Shown here: positions 1 through 24,908 of the stretch, one piece after another
How the letters are laid out: every line of letters begins with the position of its first letter
Numbering within the stretch: position 1 is the stretch's first letter
DNA from: a virus
Lineage: Duplodnaviria > Heunggongvirae > Uroviricota > Caudoviricetes
DNA length: 24,908 nt
Virus record (IMG/VR): IMGVR_UViG_2579778993_000003
Strand: one strand, 5' to 3'
The notes under the pieces: model-generated
Told to the model about the DNA's origin: nothing
The model's database searches: none
The model's input: only the letters and a program-made list of their open reading frames with translations
Program-made: the position numbers and the translations under genes

Positions 1-721
1 CTGGCGTCAGTTGTTACGGGAAGGAATCAGGGTGGCCAGATGTACAGTGGCGCGCCTCATGGCGGTTATGGGACTTGCCGGTGTTCTCCGGGGTAAAAAG
101 GTCCGCACTACCGTCAGCCGGAAAACCGTTGCCACAGGTGACCGCGTAAACCGTCAGTTCGTGGCAGAACGACCTGACCAGCTGTGGGTGGCTGATTTTA
201 CTTACGTCAGCACATGGCAGGGCTTCGTCTATGTGGCGTTTATCATTGATGTGTTTGCCGGATACATCGTGGGGTGGCGGGTCTCATCGTCTATGGAAAC
301 GACATTCGTGCTGGATGCGCTGGAGCAGGCGTTGTGGGCCCGTCGTCCGTCTGGCACCATCCATCACAGCGATAAAGGCTCTCAGTATGTGTCACTGGCC
401 TATACGGAGCGACTAAAAGAAGCCGGATTACTGGCATCAACAGGGAGTACAGGCGACTCGTATGACAACGCGATGGCTGAGAGCATCAATGGTCTTTACA
501 AAGCGGAGGTAATACACCGTAAGAGCTGGAAAAACCGTGCAGAAGTGGAACTGGCCACACTAACGTGGGTGGACTGGTATAACAATCGACGATTGCTGGG
601 AAGGCTGGGCCATACTCCTCCGGCAGAAGCAGAAAAAGCTTATTATGCTTCCATCGGAAACGATGATCTGGCAGCCTGAGTTCACAGATAAAACACTCTC
701 CAGGAAACCCGGGGCGGTTCA
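1..721 (+). mobile_element. IS3-family insertion sequence, right-hand part (element continues upstream of the window); right terminus at 721
   Basis: Transposase OrfB occupies 2-679. Sequence 678-721 (gagttcacagataaaacactctccaggaaacccggggcggttca) is the reverse complement of a TGAACCGCCCCGGG... terminal inverted repeat that I recall for IS629/IS3411-type IS3-family elements. The left end is outside the window, so length and target-site duplication cannot be checked. Confidence 0.7.
2..679 (+). CDS. IS3-family transposase OrfB (DDE integrase catalytic domain), 5'-partial at window edge
   Basis: The track ORF 11..679 begins at a TTG, and the frame is open back to position 2, so the true N-terminus lies upstream. 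The translation carries IS3-family OrfB hallmarks (WVADFTYV, HSDKGSQY, GDSYDNAMAESINGLYKAE). Stop TGA at 677-679, immediately followed by the terminal repeat. Confidence 0.85.
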   Translation, partial: WRQLLREGIRVARCTVARLMAVMGLAGVLRGKKVRTTVSRKTVATGDRVNRQFVAERPDQLWVADFTYVSTWQGFVYVAFIIDVFAGYIVGWRVSSSMETTFVLDALEQALWARRPSGTIHHSDKGSQYVSLAYTERLKEAGLLASTGSTGDSYDNAMAESINGLYKAEVIHRKSWKNRAEVELATLTWVDWYNNRRLLGRLGHTPPAEAEKAYYASIGNDDLAA

Positions 722-744
722 CAGTTTGGTAATTGACTAATCAT
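722..744 (-). pseudogene. 5' stub of a prophage gene cut by the IS insertion (ATG at 742-744, only about 7 codons remain)
   Basis: On the minus strand, GGGAG then a 9-nt spacer then ATG ATT AGT CAA TTA CCA AAC runs directly into the IS terminus at 721. A good Shine-Dalgarno with the reading frame ending at the IS boundary suggests a disrupted gene downstream of the lysis cassette. Confidence 0.35.
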
Positions 745-819
745 GAGTCGCAACTCCCTAATCAGTTTGCTAAAATCAATCAAGGCAGCCTCCCATAGCT
801 TACTGCCATAAAAACAAAA

Positions 820-850
820 CCCCGCTTGCTGCCAACAAACGGGGTTTTTA
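820..850. terminator. Bidirectional intrinsic terminator downstream of the endolysin gene
   Basis: Hairpin ccccgcttgctgccaacaaacgggg (820-844) is flanked by an A-run (811-819) and a T-run (845-849), so it can terminate either strand. Confidence 0.6.
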
Positions 851-938
851 CTTTTATTCACTTACATTTTGCCAGTTCGCAGGATTTCGTGTTATCCGTC
901 CGCCTTGGCCAACGTCATTGATTAGCAAAATATTCTGC

Positions 939-1472
939 TTATCTGTCGATTCCCCAGCACGCCAGCGCGCTCTCCTGGTCACGACGGGATACCTGACCGT
1001 AACAGTTATTTGAGCGAATACGGCAGTCTCTGCCACCGTCCTTAATCCACCAGCGAATCGCCTCACACGCTCCCCTGCGATCACCTGCATTAATTCGTTT
1101 ATAAAACGTCGACGGAAAACACTTACCGGGGCCAATGTTGTACGGACAGAATGACGCGATCCCCGCTTTCTGGGGTTCACTCAATGGCACTCTGATGTTT
1201 TTCTCCACCCATGCCAGCGCCTTATCACGCTCAATGGCGTTAACCCGGTCGCATTTTTCCTTCGACAACTTCATGCCCGGAACGACAGGTTTGCCATCCA
1301 CCAGGATGGCACCGCGGCAGATGGTCCAGATACCCGCGCCATCACGGTATGCCGTGGTGTGGTTACCTTCCTTTTCATCCAGAAACTGGTCGAGAATGTC
1401 AGGCGCAGGCGCACCAGCGGCAATCAGCGCCAGAACGGCAGCCGACAGGCCGTATCTGATTTTTGCGTTCAT
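939..1472 (-). CDS. Phage endolysin, lysozyme-like with N-terminal SAR (signal-anchor-release) segment
   Basis: 177-aa ORF. The N-terminus MNAKIRYGLSAAVLALIAAGAPAPD is a weakly hydrophobic Ala/Gly-rich stretch typical of SAR endolysins such as phage 21 R. The body resembles a T4-lysozyme-like muramidase. It lies downstream of a pinholin gene on the same strand. Confidence 0.8.
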   Translation of the reverse strand: MNAKIRYGLSAAVLALIAAGAPAPDILDQFLDEKEGNHTTAYRDGAGIWTICRGAILVDGKPVVPGMKLSKEKCDRVNAIERDKALAWVEKNIRVPLSEPQKAGIASFCPYNIGPGKCFPSTFYKRINAGDRRGACEAIRWWIKDGGRDCRIRSNNCYGQVSRRDQESALACWGIDR

Positions 1473-2380: not shown

Positions 2381-2530
2381 ACCCCGTCTCCCGTTATCCG
2401 GAAGCTGACAACAATAAAAAAAGCCACCAGTTAAGTACTGATGGCTCTGATAACTCATGCAGGCATCTCAGACGACCCACTGACACTACCGGTGAGTTTA
2501 ACGATACCTTCCATTTGACTGGCTCACTTT

Positions 2531-4387
2531 TTATGATGATGCTGGTGCATTTATCTCCAGCACCAGACTTTCTATCTCAACGCCATACGCTGCATTTTTG
2601 GTAATATCCGTCAGCGTCAGCGCATTCAGCCCCAGTGTCAGACTGTCTTTTATGACCTGGAATGCCGGGCCAGCCACTCCATTCAGTTTCGGAGTAACCG
2701 TGGCACTGCCGGCGGTGAACACCAGCTCCAGCGTCTGCCAGTCGTTACTGTAATTCCCGAACTCGCCCAACTTTGTGTTTCCTGCTTTCCTGTGATGCAT
2801 CAGATTCAGTTTGCCGTCTGTGGTCTGGGTGAAGAACGACATCAGGAACGGGTTACCAGTCCCGGTCATCGCCACGACGTCAGGTAACGCTACATCGGTA
2901 TACAGATAAATTCCCAGACCGAACTGGTTGTTGGTCAGTGCGCCTGACAGTCGAAACTTACAGCTCAGTCTGCCACCCCGTGTCAGCAGGGAGACTGCGT
3001 CATCCACCGGATGCATCAGGGACCAGGTTTTATTGCTCTGCTTGGTAACCTTAAACACACCATCTTCCAGCGCAACACTGCCGCCGGTGATGGTCCAGCC
3101 CTGCGCAGCAGCCTCTCCGGCTGTCGGCAGCAGGGAGACTGTACGAACGGATGTGTCACCATCAGACGGCCCCGATGGCGTGTCGCCGCCGGGCGAGGGT
3201 TTAATCTCCGGTGCGGTACCGCTGATGAAGGCGCTGGTTCGACCAACTGCGTTCAGAATAGCGGTTGCCAGGCGATCCGAAATAATGCCCCTGCGCGCCC
3301 ATGAACTGAAATGTGTCGGACGATTTGACGATACCCAATTACCATTACTACGGGATTGCGCGCCGTAATAACCTGCATCAGCAATATCCGGGTCTTCTGC
3401 CGGTAAGTTGGTGGGCGTGTTGTTGCCGTTACCGTCGGTCATGAACGGCACAAAGAAAACGTTGTCGCTCTCCCTGTTTTTGTACGCGCCGTAGACGGAG
3501 TCATACTGTGTGCCGTATGTGTTTTTCCAGTAATACGTCGTGTCGCCACAAATCCACGGTACAACTGCAGCACTGCCGCCATGGCACTGCGCCGCCAGCC
3601 CGGCAAGGTCAGCACGGAACTGCTGTACCATTGCAAGAAATGCTGCTGGCTGCTGGGCGTAACTGGCATTCGTCATATCGAATTCCCCCTGCATCCAGCA
3701 TATCGCCAGCAAAACGTTTTTCGGGTTTTTCTGCAATGCTGCCTTCGTGCGGAAAAGCAGATCCTGATATAATGGTTTACCCACACCCCAGCGTGCCGAA
3801 TCCTGGCTGGCCCCCGTGTCCGCACTGAATGTCCCCTCCGCGCCCTGGGTGAATGCCGAACCACCACGACAGCATGGTACCAGCAGGATCCCCGCATTAT
3901 TAGGGATATACGGAAGCAGTTTTTTGGCAATATGTAAGCCCTGTCCGACACAGCCGTACTGCCCTTTGCTCAGGTCAGCCCGGGGATGGTTAATCGTACT
4001 CATATCCTGAACATCATGCAGACAATGGTCAGCAGGAATGATGTCGTTAAATACGCATACTTCACCACCGGGAGTCACTGTGTTACGACGGGCCAGTTGC
4101 TTAATGCGCGGATGGGGCGCATCGTATGAATCCGGAAGCGGAAGCCCTTCACCGTAAGCCATGGCATTGGACTGCCCGGCCAGTACGATGACGTAGTACC
4201 ACTCCGGCTCAGTTGCACCACTGACGACCACATCACCTTCTGCTGCAATCGCCTGCATCAGGGTATAAGGGGTTATGGCCACCGGACTACCAAACGGCTG
4301 CCAGCCCTCTTTCAGTTTATGTGTCAGCTTTTCCGCAAGATCTGACGGCGACGCCGCCCTGACAACATCATAGTGTTTAAATGCCAT
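2531..4387 (-). CDS. Prophage sialate O-acetylesterase-like protein (NanS-p-like; SGNH/SASA hydrolase with extra N- and C-terminal domains), 618 aa
   Basis: Contains the esterase motif LAGQSNAMAYGEG (GQSN catalytic serine block) after an N-terminal ~60-aa domain (MAFKHYDVVRAASPSDLAEKL...), plus a long C-terminal beta-rich region. It sits between the tRNA/stx slot and the holin, the position of NanS-p genes in Stx-type prophages. Confidence 0.7.
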   Translation of the reverse strand: MAFKHYDVVRAASPSDLAEKLTHKLKEGWQPFGSPVAITPYTLMQAIAAEGDVVVSGATEPEWYYVIVLAGQSNAMAYGEGLPLPDSYDAPHPRIKQLARRNTVTPGGEVCVFNDIIPADHCLHDVQDMSTINHPRADLSKGQYGCVGQGLHIAKKLLPYIPNNAGILLVPCCRGGSAFTQGAEGTFSADTGASQDSARWGVGKPLYQDLLFRTKAALQKNPKNVLLAICWMQGEFDMTNASYAQQPAAFLAMVQQFRADLAGLAAQCHGGSAAVVPWICGDTTYYWKNTYGTQYDSVYGAYKNRESDNVFFVPFMTDGNGNNTPTNLPAEDPDIADAGYYGAQSRSNGNWVSSNRPTHFSSWARRGIISDRLATAILNAVGRTSAFISGTAPEIKPSPGGDTPSGPSDGDTSVRTVSLLPTAGEAAAQGWTITGGSVALEDGVFKVTKQSNKTWSLMHPVDDAVSLLTRGGRLSCKFRLSGALTNNQFGLGIYLYTDVALPDVVAMTGTGNPFLMSFFTQTTDGKLNLMHHRKAGNTKLGEFGNYSNDWQTLELVFTAGSATVTPKLNGVAGPAFQVIKDSLTLGLNALTLTDITKNAAYGVEIESLVLEINAPASS

Positions 4388-4580
4388 GAATCCTCCCGGC
4401 CGGGATAATATTGTGAGTAAAATGAGGAGCGGGCTGAAGTCCGGAAGTTACAGGACAATGGCAGAAGAGAGACAACAGCCCGCAATACGAAAAAGGCCGC
4501 GCTATTGCGCAGAGTGATTACTGTCGGATATTATTCGCCAGCTGAAATATTACTTCACGTTTTATTGTTTATTCCTTGCC

Positions 4581-4609
4581 GCCCGCGTCTCCCAGCGCGG
4601 GCTTTTTTT
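4581..4609 (+). terminator. Plus-strand intrinsic terminator
   Basis: Stem gcccgcg (4581-4587) pairs with cgcgggc (4596-4602) around an 8-nt loop, followed by T7 (4603-4609). The T-tract is only on the plus strand, implying a plus-strand transcript ends here, antisense to the late operon. Confidence 0.55.
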
Positions 4610-4616
4610 GCCCACA

Positions 4617-4850
4617 AGAAAACCCCTCCGGAGAGGGGCTAAAGCCGCGTATCTGTATCATCATGCACATGGTGCCGGGTGCCTCCCGGTGAGTTCAGCC
4701 CGGTGCCACTAAACCCGCGTCATTCTCGTTTTGATAATCAGAGATTATACCGTCACCAGTCGCCCCTCCGCTCAGGGGGATTCACCATGCGAAATTTTTT
4801 TAACAAATGCCCAGTCTGACAGGCAACTGTCAACTTACTGAATTGTGAGC
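4617..4850. repeat. Direct repeat unit A (~230 bp), degenerate copy of unit B, rich in palindromic hairpins
   Basis: Shares ordered conserved blocks with 5105-5318: aaaa(c/g)ccctccggagaggggct, gcatggtgccgggtgcctcccggtga, cccctccgc.cagggggattcaccatgc, ttttaacaaa and cagtcaac...ctgaattgtgag. The first block is a perfect 6-bp hairpin (CCCCTC cgga GAGGGG, 4623-4638) preceded by an A-run, so it is a minus-strand terminator. Confidence 0.6.
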
Positions 4851-4875
4851 AACATAGCATTTAACGGGGAACCTG

Positions 4876-4903
4876 TTTTCTGCAGTAAAAAGGCCCACCG
4901 GAG
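4876..4903 (-). terminator. Minus-strand intrinsic terminator between the two repeat units
   Basis: Hairpin GGCCCA (4882-4887) / TGGGCC (4898-4903) around a 10-nt loop, with a plus-strand A-run at 4877-4881 giving a T-tract on the minus-strand transcript. Confidence 0.5.
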
Positions 4904-5104
4904 CGGATGGGCCTGGAAGGATAGCGGTCATGTGATGCCGGTTTCCCGGTAACTCAGCACCGGTATCTGAGTCAACGTTTTCTCTACTGGGTCATTTCCG
5001 ATACGCCCTGCCTGCTGACAGGCTTTCATCACATCTGAAAATATAGCACCCTGACTGATACTGTAGTACCTAAGGTTCCAGAAACTGTGATGTATCCGGC
5101 ACAG

Positions 5105-5318
5105 AAAAGCCCCTCCGGAGAGGGGCTGGAGAGTGGCGCTATGTGCCATTGCATGGTGCCGGGTGCCTCCCGGTGAATTCAGTACCAGCACCTGAATCCG
5201 CGATTATCCCATATACCTACTCGCTGATTGCCCCTCCGCACAGGGGGATTCACCATGCCAGTTTCTTTTAACAAACTCCCCGCAAACCAGACAACAGTCA
5301 ACCGCCTGAATTGTGAGA
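5105..5318. repeat. Direct repeat unit B (~215 bp), degenerate copy of unit A
   Basis: Same conserved blocks as unit A, including the CCCCTC cgga GAGGGG hairpin (5110-5125) and the 8-bp inverted pair gcatggtg / caccatgc bracketing a variable ~110-nt core. Confidence 0.6.
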
Positions 5319-5323
5319 CATTT

Positions 5324-5347
5324 AAAAAAAAGCCCGCAAAAGCGAGC
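5324..5347 (-). terminator. Minus-strand terminator-like hairpin directly after the tRNA cluster
   Basis: Plus-strand A8 (5324-5331) then gcccgc aaaa gcgagc (5332-5347); on the minus strand this is an imperfect 6-bp hairpin followed by T8. Confidence 0.45.
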
Positions 5348-5362
5348 CAGTGAAAATAAGTG

Positions 5363-5439
5363 TGGCGCGTTGTACTGGATTCGAACCAGTGACCGATTGC
5401 TTAGAAGGCAATTGCTCTGTCCGGCTGAGCTAACAACGC
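5363..5439 (-). tRNA. tRNA-Arg (anticodon UCU)
   Basis: Manual cloverleaf on the minus strand: acceptor GCGTTGT/ACAACGC, D-stem GCTC/GAGC, anticodon stem ATTGC/GCAAT with loop CTTCTAA, T-arm ACTGG-TTCGAAT-CCAGT, discriminator G and encoded CCA. All stems perfect; 77 nt. Confidence 0.9.
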
Positions 5440-5452
5440 AGGATACAGATAA

Positions 5453-5529
5453 TGGACCGCCTTCGGGGACCCGAACTCCGCGCAACCAGCTTCGAAGGCT
5501 GGCGCTCTTTCCTGATGAGCTAATGGCGG
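5453..5529 (-). tRNA. Putative tRNA-Arg (anticodon UCG), slightly degenerate
   Basis: Cloverleaf fits with D-stem GCTC/GAGC, anticodon stem CCAGC/GCTGG with loop CTTCGAA, and encoded CCA. There is one mismatch in the acceptor stem (A-A), one in the T-stem (A-C), and an atypical T-loop TTCGGGT, so it may be a diverged or pseudo tRNA. Confidence 0.55.
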
Positions 5530-5536
5530 TATGTGA

Positions 5537-5612
5537 TGGTGGCCCTTGCTGGATTTGAACCAGCGACCTGGCGATTATGAGTCGCTCGCTCTCACCACTG
5601 AGCTAAAGGGCC
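5537..5612 (-). tRNA. tRNA with CAU anticodon (Met by anticodon; resembles the Ile2/lysidine-type ileX/ileZ class)
   Basis: Minus-strand sequence GGCCCTTTAGCTCAGTGGTGAGAGCGAGCGACTCATAATCGCCAGGTCGCTGGTTCAAATCCAGCAAGGGCCACCA folds as a 76-nt cloverleaf with one A-C mismatch in the anticodon stem. It closely resembles E. coli ileX as I recall it. Confidence 0.85.
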
Positions 5613-10231: not shown

Positions 10232-12496
10232 TTATACGGAAACTGGCACACGAGCAGGCAATGGATAGTGAGCCCAGTTATTAGCATTTAAAGCTCTTAC
10301 GCCATCAGCATAAACTTGTGTTTTTCCATCTAATGATTTTAAAGTTACTACAATAGTTACAGGTAAAGGCTCCATTAAGGCCGGTTCATTCGCTCTCAAC
10401 GTTGTTTTAGCTTGAAGAGCCCAGTTACCCGAAGTAATTCCTTTATTAAATGCCTTGCGATGAATTTTTACTGGTGACCACTTTCCACCATGCTCAATTT
10501 GAGCTCTCTCATATCCAGATTGACCGTTTTCTCCTTCCATAGGTACTTTTCCTTTTATAGTATTATTCTCAATTAAGCCAAAACTTAGCTCTACGTTCGC
10601 GCGAACATATTCACTGCCGGCATTAGGGTTCAGTGGTGGTGCATATGCAGCAGTAATTACAATCTCACCTTTAAATTTTCCATTTTGAATAAGTGCCGAT
10701 GGTATGGGATAGTTTTCCTTTCTCCACCTCACCCCAGGAACCAAGAATGTTTGGAAAATCAGAGTAAACCTATCATCACTATCATATAAGGTCTCAATAA
10801 CCTCATTAGGAATTCCCGCTCCCAAATAGCGTCTTTCACTTGGCGAGTAATCAGGAGAAGATAATTGAGCGGAATGAATTAATAATGCTTTAATCAATGA
10901 TGGTGAAACATTAAAGTCTGAATTAGTGGCTATTCTCTGCCATGTATGCGCAGCTAAACTTGCCACAATTGGAGCAGCAAAACTAGTACCAAAATTAGAG
11001 CAAAGCCTATTATCTGGCCCTACGACCTTTAAACTGCTTGCTCCTACATTCCAAGGTCTATGAACCCCACCGCCAGCATGGATTATATCTGGCTTTGGAG
11101 TAAATACAGGCCCAGGGCCACGACGAGTATATGGTGTCGGTGTTCCAATTTCACTTAAAGCATCATTAGCTTCCATATGAGAAACTGAACCAACTGTTAG
11201 TGCTCGGACTGACTCTCCAGGAGAGGAAATTAAATCAGCACCTCCAAGCGGATCAGGATTTGGCCATGTACGTATAGGTTCATCTACATAATTACCTGCA
11301 GCAACTACAAACAAAATACCAAATTTATCGCTGAGCCGATCTAACTCCATCGCAAAATCACTAAACATCTGCTCATTACATGGTCCGCCTCCCAAAGATA
11401 AATTCCAGACTTTTATATCTGGTCTTTTATTTACAGCATCTGCTAGCCTCAGAATTAAATCTGATATATAAGATCCATTTTCATCTAAAGCACAAACATC
11501 ATGGATTTTAGATTTTGTATCAGGAATCCATGGATGATTGTCATTTAAAAAATGAGCGCCTGATATCAATGAAGACACCATAGTCCCATGTTCATAACTC
11601 GTATCAGGAGGAATTACGTATGTTTCCCTACTCACTACCCAAGGAGTAATTGTTGCCGCGATGGGGCTTACCCCAGTGTCAAATACAGCAACAATGGGTA
11701 ATTCTTCTGATGGTACGGGAAAGCTATTTGTTTCAATGCCAACAGAATCACTTACACTAACCGGGAATGCTGAATATTTTGGTTCTGGAATTAACGTTCT
11801 TATACCCGGGTAATCAATGAGAATGTCTAATATATATCTATCATTTGGGGATAAATCCATTATCCTTAATAAGGGAAGACCACATTTTGGTCTAATCTCA
11901 TCATATTTAACTCCGTGTTGTTCTAATATAGAAATAACGTTTTCATAGTTGTTGTAAGTTGCATCTTCACCTGTGTACTCAAATAGTCGTACAAGGATGT
12001 TTGATGATTCAAACAAACCATCAGTGCCTCCTGGAACCTTCCTATTCTCATCCCAAGGTTCAATGCGCTCAATCGCGCTTAGATTAGCCAAAATCGCTTT
12101 AATATTCCGATGTAAAATGACTGACTCTAATACGTCAAAACAGCCGGCATGAGCAGCAACCAACATTTCATCTATTTTGGCATGACCGGCATTTTGCAAT
12201 CCAGCCTCTTGAGCAATTTTGTTCGGCCTATGCGTTTTGGCTATTCCCTGGTCTCTTAATTTGAAAACCAAAGTACCCAAGCTTCCAGGGTACTCTGAAA
12301 GTTTGGATTCTAAATAATGTTTACTGGTTGTTAAATTTCTTACTAGCCCTTGTCTATATTCGGCTGTTACATCAACCAATACCTTTGCCCCACCGCCAGC
12401 GTTTACTATTGCACCCAAGTCACTACTGGAAAAAGGGATTCTTAACATTGGGTTTGTAACTTTTGCGTTACTAAACTGTGTACCCCTTCTGCTCAT
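10232..12496 (-). CDS. Subtilisin-like serine protease (peptidase S8) with extra N- and C-terminal domains, 754 aa; protease component of an IetAS-like two-gene system
   Basis: Catalytic residues in subtilisin order: Asp in VAVFDTGVS, His in YEHGTMVSS, oxyanion Asn in VVAAGNY, Ser in GTSFAAPIVAS. ATG at 12494-12496 with a GGAG/AGGAG SD inside the 3' end of the upstream ATPase gene (26-bp overlap). A+T-rich relative to neighbouring prophage genes. Confidence 0.9.
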   Translation of the reverse strand: MSRRGTQFSNAKVTNPMLRIPFSSSDLGAIVNAGGGAKVLVDVTAEYRQGLVRNLTTSKHYLESKLSEYPGSLGTLVFKLRDQGIAKTHRPNKIAQEAGLQNAGHAKIDEMLVAAHAGCFDVLESVILHRNIKAILANLSAIERIEPWDENRKVPGGTDGLFESSNILVRLFEYTGEDATYNNYENVISILEQHGVKYDEIRPKCGLPLLRIMDLSPNDRYILDILIDYPGIRTLIPEPKYSAFPVSVSDSVGIETNSFPVPSEELPIVAVFDTGVSPIAATITPWVVSRETYVIPPDTSYEHGTMVSSLISGAHFLNDNHPWIPDTKSKIHDVCALDENGSYISDLILRLADAVNKRPDIKVWNLSLGGGPCNEQMFSDFAMELDRLSDKFGILFVVAAGNYVDEPIRTWPNPDPLGGADLISSPGESVRALTVGSVSHMEANDALSEIGTPTPYTRRGPGPVFTPKPDIIHAGGGVHRPWNVGASSLKVVGPDNRLCSNFGTSFAAPIVASLAAHTWQRIATNSDFNVSPSLIKALLIHSAQLSSPDYSPSERRYLGAGIPNEVIETLYDSDDRFTLIFQTFLVPGVRWRKENYPIPSALIQNGKFKGEIVITAAYAPPLNPNAGSEYVRANVELSFGLIENNTIKGKVPMEGENGQSGYERAQIEHGGKWSPVKIHRKAFNKGITSGNWALQAKTTLRANEPALMEPLPVTIVVTLKSLDGKTQVYADGVRALNANNWAHYPLPARVPVSV

Positions 12497-13625
12497 ATGC
12501 TCCTGACTCCTTCAGAATGTTTGAAATTACTCTTGATGTAAGTTTGTACAAATTAGCAAGAACTCTGATAGAAAATAATTTTTTATCTTTAGAACGTAAC
12601 CAACGAATTTCATCTTCGTAAGTGCTTAAATTTACACCTTCCATAAGCGATTGCGCAAGATACAAACGCCTATACAATTTATGGTGATTTATCACACTTG
12701 CACCTTCAATAACTGCATCCCTACGTGCATCCAAGCTCACCTGTTCAATTATTGCTCCGGATAATCCCTCCGATTTTCTTGATAAATCACTTAAATCTAG
12801 ATCGCTACATATCATATTCTTTAAACGATTTTTCCAAATTAACTCTCTCTGATGTATGTCAGGCAGAGGCATTGGAATTCTGAAGCTAAATCGCCTCCAG
12901 ATTGCAGGATCCAGAAGTTGCTCATGGTTAGTTGAGGCAATAATTACCGTATCCTCTGATGCCGCATCCATATTCTGCAATAGTGAAATGACAACTCGCT
13001 GAAGCTCACCTATATCTCTCTCATTACCTCTTGCTCCAGCTAAAGCATCAAATTCGTCTAAAAAAAGCACTGATGGCCTCTGCATTACATAATCGAAAAC
13101 CTGTCTAAGATTTTTGCTGGTTTGTCCCAATAAACTACTAATCAAAGTATCGCAACGCACTGTAAGAAGTGGAAAATCTAAGCGGGTAGCGATGTACTTA
13201 GATAACATAGTCTTACCTGTTCCTGGCTTTCCATACACGAGCATACGACTCGGCAATGCTGCATCAGCTTTAACAAACTCATCATAACGTTGAACATTAG
13301 TGATAAACTCTTCAACACGGGTACTGATTGCTGCAGGCAGAAAAATCTCTGAACTGTCTAATTTAGGATAACTGACATCAACAGTGTTGAGTCGACTATC
13401 AATATCTACCGGTAATGAGCCCAGAGATATCCCACCTCCAGCCCTTTGAGCTCCTGCCAACGCCTGGGGAGCTCTAAGCAACCTTTCTCTTATCATTCTG
13501 GCTTGCTTGACCTCCCCTTTTTGTTCGAGCTTATCTGCCAGCAACCCAGCATAATTACTAGCCATCGAAGCATTTGCCTTTGTTGCACCTTCAATGATTT
13601 TTAACACTTCTGATAAATAATCCAT
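12471..13625 (-). CDS. Classic AAA-family ATPase, 384 aa; ATPase component of an IetAS-like two-gene system
   Basis: Walker A GKPGTGKT, Walker B VLFLDEFD, and a second-region-of-homology-like segment ASTNHEQLLDPAIWRRFSF with sensor Asn and Arg fingers. ATG at 13623-13625 preceded by GGGAG with a 6-nt spacer, after an AT-rich ~190-bp leader. Confidence 0.9.
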   Translation of the reverse strand: MDYLSEVLKIIEGATKANASMASNYAGLLADKLEQKGEVKQARMIRERLLRAPQALAGAQRAGGGISLGSLPVDIDSRLNTVDVSYPKLDSSEIFLPAAISTRVEEFITNVQRYDEFVKADAALPSRMLVYGKPGTGKTMLSKYIATRLDFPLLTVRCDTLISSLLGQTSKNLRQVFDYVMQRPSVLFLDEFDALAGARGNERDIGELQRVVISLLQNMDAASEDTVIIASTNHEQLLDPAIWRRFSFRIPMPLPDIHQRELIWKNRLKNMICSDLDLSDLSRKSEGLSGAIIEQVSLDARRDAVIEGASVINHHKLYRRLYLAQSLMEGVNLSTYEDEIRWLRSKDKKLFSIRVLANLYKLTSRVISNILKESGAYEQKGYTV

Positions 13626-24672: not shown

Positions 24673-24767
24673 ATCCGCTCCGTCGTTATGGTTATAAAAA
24701 CGTGACGAATATACCTACATTGGAGTAACAAATGATCCTACATAGATCACATTACATATGATAATTC

Positions 24768-24908
24768 GGTAATGACTCCAACTTATTGATAGTGTTTTAT
24801 GTTCAGATAATGCCCGATGACTTTGTCATGCAGCTCCACCGATTTTGAGAACGACAGCGACTTCCGTCCCAGCCGTGCCAGGTGCTGCCTCAGATTCAGG
24901 TTATGCCG
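24768..24908 (-). mobile_element. IS1 insertion sequence, IRR-proximal end (element continues beyond window end)
   Basis: GGTAATGACTCCAACTTATTGATAGTG... from 24768 matches the IS1 right inverted repeat as I recall it; the following sequence encodes the InsB C-terminus on the minus strand. Confidence 0.85.
24783..24908 (-). CDS. insB: IS1 transposase InsB, 3' end (5'-partial at window edge)
   Basis: Minus-strand translation of 24908-24783 gives ...[41 protein letters not shown] followed by a stop (TAA, complement of 24783-24785), overlapping the IS1 terminal repeat. Confidence 0.8.

Follow-up and report, generated by a model that had tools for sequence, protein, structure and literature searches.

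Insertion sequences of the IS3 family transpose by a copy-out/paste-in route that depends on OrfAB, a transframe DDE transposase, and copies of IS629/IS1203 in lambdoid prophages are a textbook case of E. coli genome plasticity. IS1203 and IS3411 are given as isoforms of IS629, an element whose target duplications measure 3-4 bp (PMC3271280). In O157:H7, 62% of the IS629 copies are located in prophages, and matching duplications are kept at only 21 of 47 sites (PMC3271280); IS-bounded rearrangements are therefore common.

Here we analyse a stretch of 24,908 bp from a Caudoviricetes record (IMG/VR IMGVR_UViG_2579778993_000003, hereafter the window), which is the complete draft contig JJLT01000063.1 (GCA_000627455.1). 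It very likely carries an IS629/IS1203-type element in the lysis region of an ompW-adjacent E. coli lambdoid prophage, where the element splits a gene of the family phrog_6632, the apparent truncation of the prophage being a contig end in a repeat.

Identity and boundaries of the insertion sequence

The following features are located at the left end of the window.
1..721, plus strand: remnant of an IS629/IS1203-type element, from its identity to full copies with 3-bp target-site duplications (TSDs)
2..679, plus strand: C-terminal 225 codons and stop codon of the transposase (part of orfB), from Pfam, NCBIfam and the DDE motif
697..721, plus strand: right terminal inverted repeat, imperfect, about 25 bp, ending ...TTCA, from the IRL/IRR comparison
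722..724, no strand: CAG, predicted right-hand copy of a 3-bp TSD, from the empty site in E. coli TUM14664 and the 3-bp TSDs of five full copies

Positions 1-721 are the 3' 721 bp of a 1,310-bp IS3-family element (IS positions 590-1310, with window base 1 at IS position 590). They show no mismatch over 721/721 bp to a full copy in E. coli UMNF18, one mismatch over 721 bp to each of three other full copies, and 9/721 mismatches (98.8% identity) to a copy in O157:H7 Z1815 that PGAP names IS1203. A megablast search of 5,426 complete E. coli genomes with positions 1-721 returned thousands of copies; among the matches listed, one is 100% identical and the others are 99.9% identical. Five full copies from unrelated contexts (cysM/yfeS, an Ig-like adhesin gene, the mcrC neighbourhood, yadC, and an O157:H7 prophage) are each 1,310 bp long, start with TGAACCGCCCC and end with GGGGCGGTTCA. 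All five are flanked by perfect 3-bp direct repeats (GTC, AAC, GAC, TTT, and CAA).

The right end of the element in the window, …GGGGCGGTTCA at 721, is the terminus found in the five full copies. The ends are of the 5'-TG…CA-3' type (...GGTTCA at 721 in the window, TGAACC at the left ends of the full copies), and the IRL/IRR comparison gives 13 terminal matches, then TCCTGGAGA. The original prediction had placed the end of the terminal repeat at 721, and this position is supported both by the shared terminus of the full copies and by IS-free relatives that are identical to the window from 722 on.

The transposase is read in frame 2 and stops with TGA at 677-679. The partial translation matches the Pfam integrase core rve (5.2e-28), as well as rve_3, rve_2, and HTH_21, and scores 253.7 bits (cutoff 160) against the NCBIfam profile transpos_IS3, of which it covers positions 157-369 of 369, the C-terminal 58%. 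The DDE residues are D65, D124, and E160 of the partial translation, with D-D and D-E offsets of 59 and 36. The window thus opens within an IS3-family transposase gene, as had been proposed from the letters alone. IS3-family elements have two overlapping ORFs that a programmed -1 frameshift joins. Full copies that match the 721 bp of the window exactly or almost exactly carry the annotation "programmed frameshift" and an AL1L pseudoknot; the frameshift region (IS ~336-452 in full copies) is upstream of the window start at IS 590.

On this sequence evidence the element is an IS3-family member of the IS629/IS1203/IS3411 isoform group, because it differs from the IS1203 copy at only 9 of 721 positions and the full copies share their ends and TSDs. 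The name is taken from the PGAP-named IS1203 copy and not from ISfinder entries; for full copies of this sequence variant the PGAP label is "IS3 family transposase" only.

The insertion site and its empty counterpart

Two counterparts without the IS, E. coli TUM14664 and strain 102651, align with the whole of 722-24908. In an ungapped comparison, TUM14664 and the window differ by 8 scattered SNPs in 24,187 bp, which suggests that the insertion may be a recent event. The empty site in TUM14664 reads …CAGCAAAAATTTC-CAG-TTTGGTAATTGAC… (also read as AAAAATTTC-CAG-TTTGG, or TTTC/CAG/TTTGG), while the window has …GGGGCGGTTCA-CAG-TTTGG… at the same place. Therefore, the phage sequence starts at 722, and CAG is the duplication to be expected. 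Positions 722-744, which had been taken to be outside the IS, are found in the IS-free relatives with the same sequence. A BLAST homology start at 718 was rejected as a chance TTC match with a gap, the true start being 722.

The identical right junction is present in four public records: GCA_000627475.1, GCA_000627455.1 (the window itself), GCA_053192715.1, in which the contig stops 75 bp into the IS, and the ENA metagenome ERZ28625308, in which the scaffold stops ~54 bp into the IS. Given its presence in three records other than the window, the insertion is real and inherited in the sampled lineage. None of the 5,426 complete E. coli genomes has the junction, and in ~700 of them the site is intact; a 30-mer spanning the right junction has no match in the genome, metagenome or viral contig collections. 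The predicted left junction has no match in the viral contig collection. A 23-mer for this junction has one match each in the genome and metagenome contig collections, both of which are the same soil Verrucomicrobia sequence, from Candidatus Udaeobacter (MAG positions 1839-1861; metagenome contig positions 5254-5276). These were rejected as chance matches because their flanks resemble neither the phage nor the IS, and 23-mers are able to match by chance in collections of such size. Neither the junction ORFs (59 aa and 33 aa) nor the partial transposase has an exact match among recorded proteins, and the predicted 37-aa left-junction ORF is absent from the protein collection, which is a weak negative. 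A sigma-70 scan of the IS/phage junction found no hybrid promoter directed outward.

The left edge of the window

Contigs that end in repeats are the usual signature of short-read assemblies. The contig that makes up the window stops inside IS copies at both ends: the IS629-type copy at 1-721 and, just beyond ompW, an IS1 copy (24768-24908) with its terminal repeat GGTAATGACTCC from 24768. The IS1 copy is common to TUM14664, and the matches of most other relatives stop at 24767. Because both contig ends are located in repeated IS copies, the left edge is best read as an assembly break and not as a biological end. The sister contig JJLS01000171.1 (GCA_000627475.1, 30,833 bp) has the same junction and a complete 295-aa orfB, and runs ~5.7 kb further than the window, which is ~4.9 kb past the predicted left end of the IS. 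The proposal that the IS truncates the prophage on the left is thus not borne out as stated.

A conserved 44-codon gene is interrupted

On the phage side of the junction, the features are as follows.
722..783, minus strand: 5' remnant (codons 1-20 plus 2 nt) of a 44-codon small membrane-protein gene of phrog_6632, from the intact TUM14664 homologue
789..794, minus strand: Shine-Dalgarno sequence GGGAGG, 5 nt upstream of the TTG start
682..783, minus strand: fusion ORF of 33 codons, 20 from the phage and 13 encoded by the IS (…QLPN-CEPPRVSWRVFYL, then the stop codon), from translation
806..848, minus strand: terminator-like hairpin (15 pairs) with a T-run, between the endolysin gene and the small gene
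939..1472, minus strand: endolysin R, Pfam Phage_lysozyme 1.3e-23, annotated as lysozyme in relatives

The start codon of the small gene is most likely the TTG at 783..781, and its Met14 is the ATG at 744..742 on the minus strand. In the Salmonella phages SPN3UB and SEN34 the equivalent is AAGGGAG followed by a GTG start, which opens a 45-codon ORF. The intact gene of TUM14664 (12065..11931 in locus numbering) encodes a 44-residue product, MIDFSKLIRELRLMISQLPNWKFLLVWSIPFLWVVSQLIVAIKG, in which one hydrophobic helix comes after an N-terminal IDFSKLIRELRxM motif. The IS entered after codon 20 of 44, and the transmembrane segment is lost from the fusion ORF.

Residues 1-43 of the intact TUM14664 allele align with profile positions 1-43 of 45 of phrog_6632 (E=1.4e-13), and the SEN34 member matches the same profile with an E-value of 3.5e-24. 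A tblastn search with the C-terminal 31 residues retrieved the Salmonella phages SPN3UB, SEN34, and FSL SP-016, with 50-53% identity from residue 1, and a search of 5.8 billion proteins identified homologues of 44-45 residues in Citrobacter, Enterobacter, Klebsiella, Providencia, and Salmonella. Among the homologues, the N-terminal motif I-D-x-S-K-L-I-x-E-L-R-x-M is invariant or nearly so and is followed by the hydrophobic tail. Length, start and Shine-Dalgarno position, and stop codon are kept at 50-60% amino acid identity in Salmonella, Enterobacter, Klebsiella, and Citrobacter elements. Two pairwise comparisons give dN/dS of 0.57 and 0.19, and a third is saturated at synonymous sites; for the C-terminal 24 codons, dN/dS is 0.22 against the variant of O157 strain 86-24. 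In 86-24 and in PhiR5_1 there is a 31-codon version that starts from the equivalent of Met14 and is located directly after an antirepressor gene. Within E. coli the small-gene region is almost invariant (identity of at least 99% in 582 of 893 genomes), and therefore conservation there says little. From the coding evidence, which comes from a few divergent homologues, we conclude that the 44-codon ORF is a real gene.

Public annotations give this gene as 44, 31 or 70 aa, and most PGAP annotations omit it or start it elsewhere. The 70-codon reading from a GTG (window 682..861; WP_001043230.1 in some genomes), which is PGAP-annotated in some genomes and, in the intact relatives, appears in a mechanical ORF listing, was rejected as a mis-start. 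Its first 26 codons lack conservation and take in the terminator hairpin, the phrog_6632 alignment of the 70-residue version begins only at residue 28, and in phiSTEC1589-Stx1c a 1-bp deletion destroys the 70-codon reading while leaving the 44-codon one. Also rejected was a 22-codon ORF on the plus strand (743-811), which has no Pfam match, is never annotated in relatives and is antisense to the conserved gene.

These results bear on two parts of the original prediction. A prophage ORF had been said to start at 744; this does not hold for the plus-strand ATG at 743-745, whose 22-codon ORF no record annotates and no family matches, and holds only in the sense that the minus-strand ATG at 744..742 is Met14 of the real 44-codon gene. 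That the insertion interrupts a phage gene is right in substance, since the phrog_6632 ORF is cut after codon 20, although the gene itself had been left undefined.

Prophage context

The annotation of TUM14664 describes a lambdoid prophage integrated beside ompW. Genes in the window run leftward on the minus strand, in the order int/xis and early region, IteA/IteS, Q, three tRNAs, SASA esterase, class II holin, YdfR, and lysozyme R; beyond R, the IS-free relative (NZ_CP135649.1) continues with small ORFs, Rz/Rz1, a TonB-like gene, HNH, terminase, head, and tail genes. The IS end is 217 nt downstream of the stop codon of R and ~95 nt past the strong terminator-like hairpin, whose stem spans 848..816 and is conserved in Stx-phage relatives. 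The transposase gene is antisense to the phage late operon.

Most Stx-phage relatives match the window only from ~810 on, and therefore 722-810 is part of a less common mosaic module. Many draft contigs begin in the hairpin region (~806-850), with ORF calls that are partial at the N-terminus. Between the disrupted gene and Rz, TUM14664 has three tiny hydrophobic ORFs of 43, 51, and 28 codons (11580-11928 in locus numbering), which match phrog_4906 and phrog_3246/1115/4493, families without an assigned function; the lysis cassette of TUM14664 thus contains a run of genes for mini membrane proteins.

The layout at ~4388-5612 of the window resembles that of Stx phages (Q, three tRNAs, a NanS-p-type SASA esterase, holin, and R). 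The prophage appears to be an stx-negative relative of Stx phages, because only ~1 kb with a partial hypothetical ORF is located at the usual place of stx. At 10232-13625 the window encodes an anti-phage pair, so annotated in the relative, of IteA (AAA ATPase) and IteS (S8 peptidase). The exact IteS variant of the window is found on only 18 contigs, and each of the other window proteins near the left end on at least 359. Outside the window, the portal gene of TUM14664 (2722-4982 in locus numbering) is annotated as frameshifted, which may point to a prophage that is already defective in this relative, or to an error in the sequence.

A possible link of phrog_6632 to lysis

In several contexts the phrog_6632 gene is located 71-258 nt downstream of an endolysin gene. 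It follows a GH24 lysozyme in this prophage, a 210-aa GH19-like protein with a weak or faint Glyco_hydro_19 match and holins before it in Enterobacter prophages, and a Peptidase_M15_4 endolysin in GCA_946061835.1. In the Salmonella phage SPN3UB, a single nucleotide separates its end from Rz. Tail or baseplate modules also harbour the gene, in SEN34 and in a Citrobacter prophage, and the link to lysis is therefore frequent but not universal. Because the gene is directly downstream of an endolysin, of whichever type, in at least five contexts, we raise the tentative idea that phrog_6632 could act in phage lysis as an accessory or regulator that has so far gone unrecognised. If so, the IS-bearing lineage would be a natural knock-out, with TUM14664 as its near-isogenic intact comparator.

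Proposed explanation and alternatives

We propose that the element would have arrived by ordinary IS3-family copy-out/paste-in transposition, with duplication of the 3-bp target CAG, and that the prophage continues on the other side of the IS. The predicted left junction joins ...AAAAATTTCCAG to TGAACCGCC..., followed by small-ORF, Rz, and terminase sequence as in TUM14664. In JJLS01000171.1 the left end TGAACCGCCCC would be at ~4,876, with the second CAG outside it and then the 3' half of the 44-codon gene, in sequence identical to TUM14664 (NZ_CP135649.1) leftward of 917,660. The insertion fuses the N-terminal 20 codons of the phrog_6632 gene to 13 IS-derived codons, with the membrane segment split off, and would place 1.3 kb of foreign antisense DNA in the late transcription unit, between S/R on one side and Rz and the rest of the late operon on the other. 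Antitermination by Q may allow the modified polymerase to read through the IS, so that late gene expression need not be abolished, and the extra 1.3 kb is probably tolerable for packaging.

A simple insertion is probable, because the right junction is clean, an empty site is available from a near-isogenic relative and every reference copy is itself a simple insertion. An alternative, suggested by the O157 precedent but unlikely, is a rearrangement bounded by the IS, in which an IS-mediated deletion, an inversion or IS-IS recombination would have eliminated or relocated the late region (Rz, terminase, head, and tail), so that the prophage really is truncated at 721/722. Elements of the IS629 type are known to cause small deletions in O157 prophages, and matching TSDs are kept by less than half of the O157 IS629 copies (PMC3271280); both the DNA and the predicted ORF of the left junction were also not found in the collections searched, although these are weak negatives. 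However, the phage side is intact to the base, as expected of a simple insertion, and the near-identity of the IS-free relative (8 SNPs in 24 kb) suggests a recent event. The five reference copies of this variant, moreover, are all simple insertions with TSDs, and JJLS01000171.1 has a complete orfB and ~4.9 kb of sequence beyond the predicted left end of the IS. Far less plausible is an assembly chimera, made by the collapse of IS repeats, with no IS at this site in the real genome; such an error might be suspected in a short-read draft contig with repeats at both ends, but the junction recurs identically in four independently assembled records, one of them a metagenome scaffold, and the breakpoint coincides exactly with the canonical terminus of the IS.

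The remaining alternative concerns what was hit rather than how. If the 44-codon ORF were no gene but part of a non-coding spacer, the insertion would interrupt nothing coding, and possible polarity on the late operon would be its sole effect. The shortness of the ORF and its TTG start speak for this view, as does the lack of a PGAP annotation for the region in most relatives; the region is also almost invariant in E. coli (at least 99% in 582 of 893 genomes), which makes its conservation there little guide. Against this, length, start and Shine-Dalgarno sequence, and stop are conserved across genera at 50-60% amino acid identity, dN/dS is below 1, a dedicated PHROG family of 45 positions exists, and the gene recurs beside three unrelated endolysin types. 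We consider the spacer improbable, and prefer the reading in which a simple insertion splits the phrog_6632 gene.

Comparison with known systems

As an IS insertion, the event matters little: it is of an already-known kind, a known element showing known behaviour. Its value is that an apparent truncation is shown to be a repeat-caused assembly artefact, and that the insertion is defined to the base with a near-isogenic empty site. It also flags a conserved and usually mis-annotated 44-codon gene beside endolysin genes, and the lineage could aid the study of its function.

An IS1203 copy in O157:H7 Z1815 (2412-3721 in locus numbering) offers a parallel. It is of the same IS type, has the same orientation to the lysis genes, is located in the same R-to-Rz interval and is flanked by a 3-bp duplication. 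In contrast to the insertion in the window, the Z1815 copy arose independently, at another site and in a spacer module that is not homologous, with the TSD CAA, and is located 9 nt upstream of a small ORF instead of within the phrog_6632 gene. Several other O157 genomes give similar two-piece matches, and the R-to-Rz interval may be a favoured region for this IS.

Compared with phrog_6632, the intact E. coli version of the interrupted gene aligns end to end with the 45-position profile, whereas the window keeps only codons 1-20 joined to the start. Compared with the IS629/IS1203/IS3411 group, the element in the window has no difference of substance: full copies of 1,310 bp, the termini TGAACCGCCCC…GGGGCGGTTCA, a DDE (rve) transposase, the 3-bp target duplications of full copies (a predicted CAG in the window) and the preference for prophages are all common to both.
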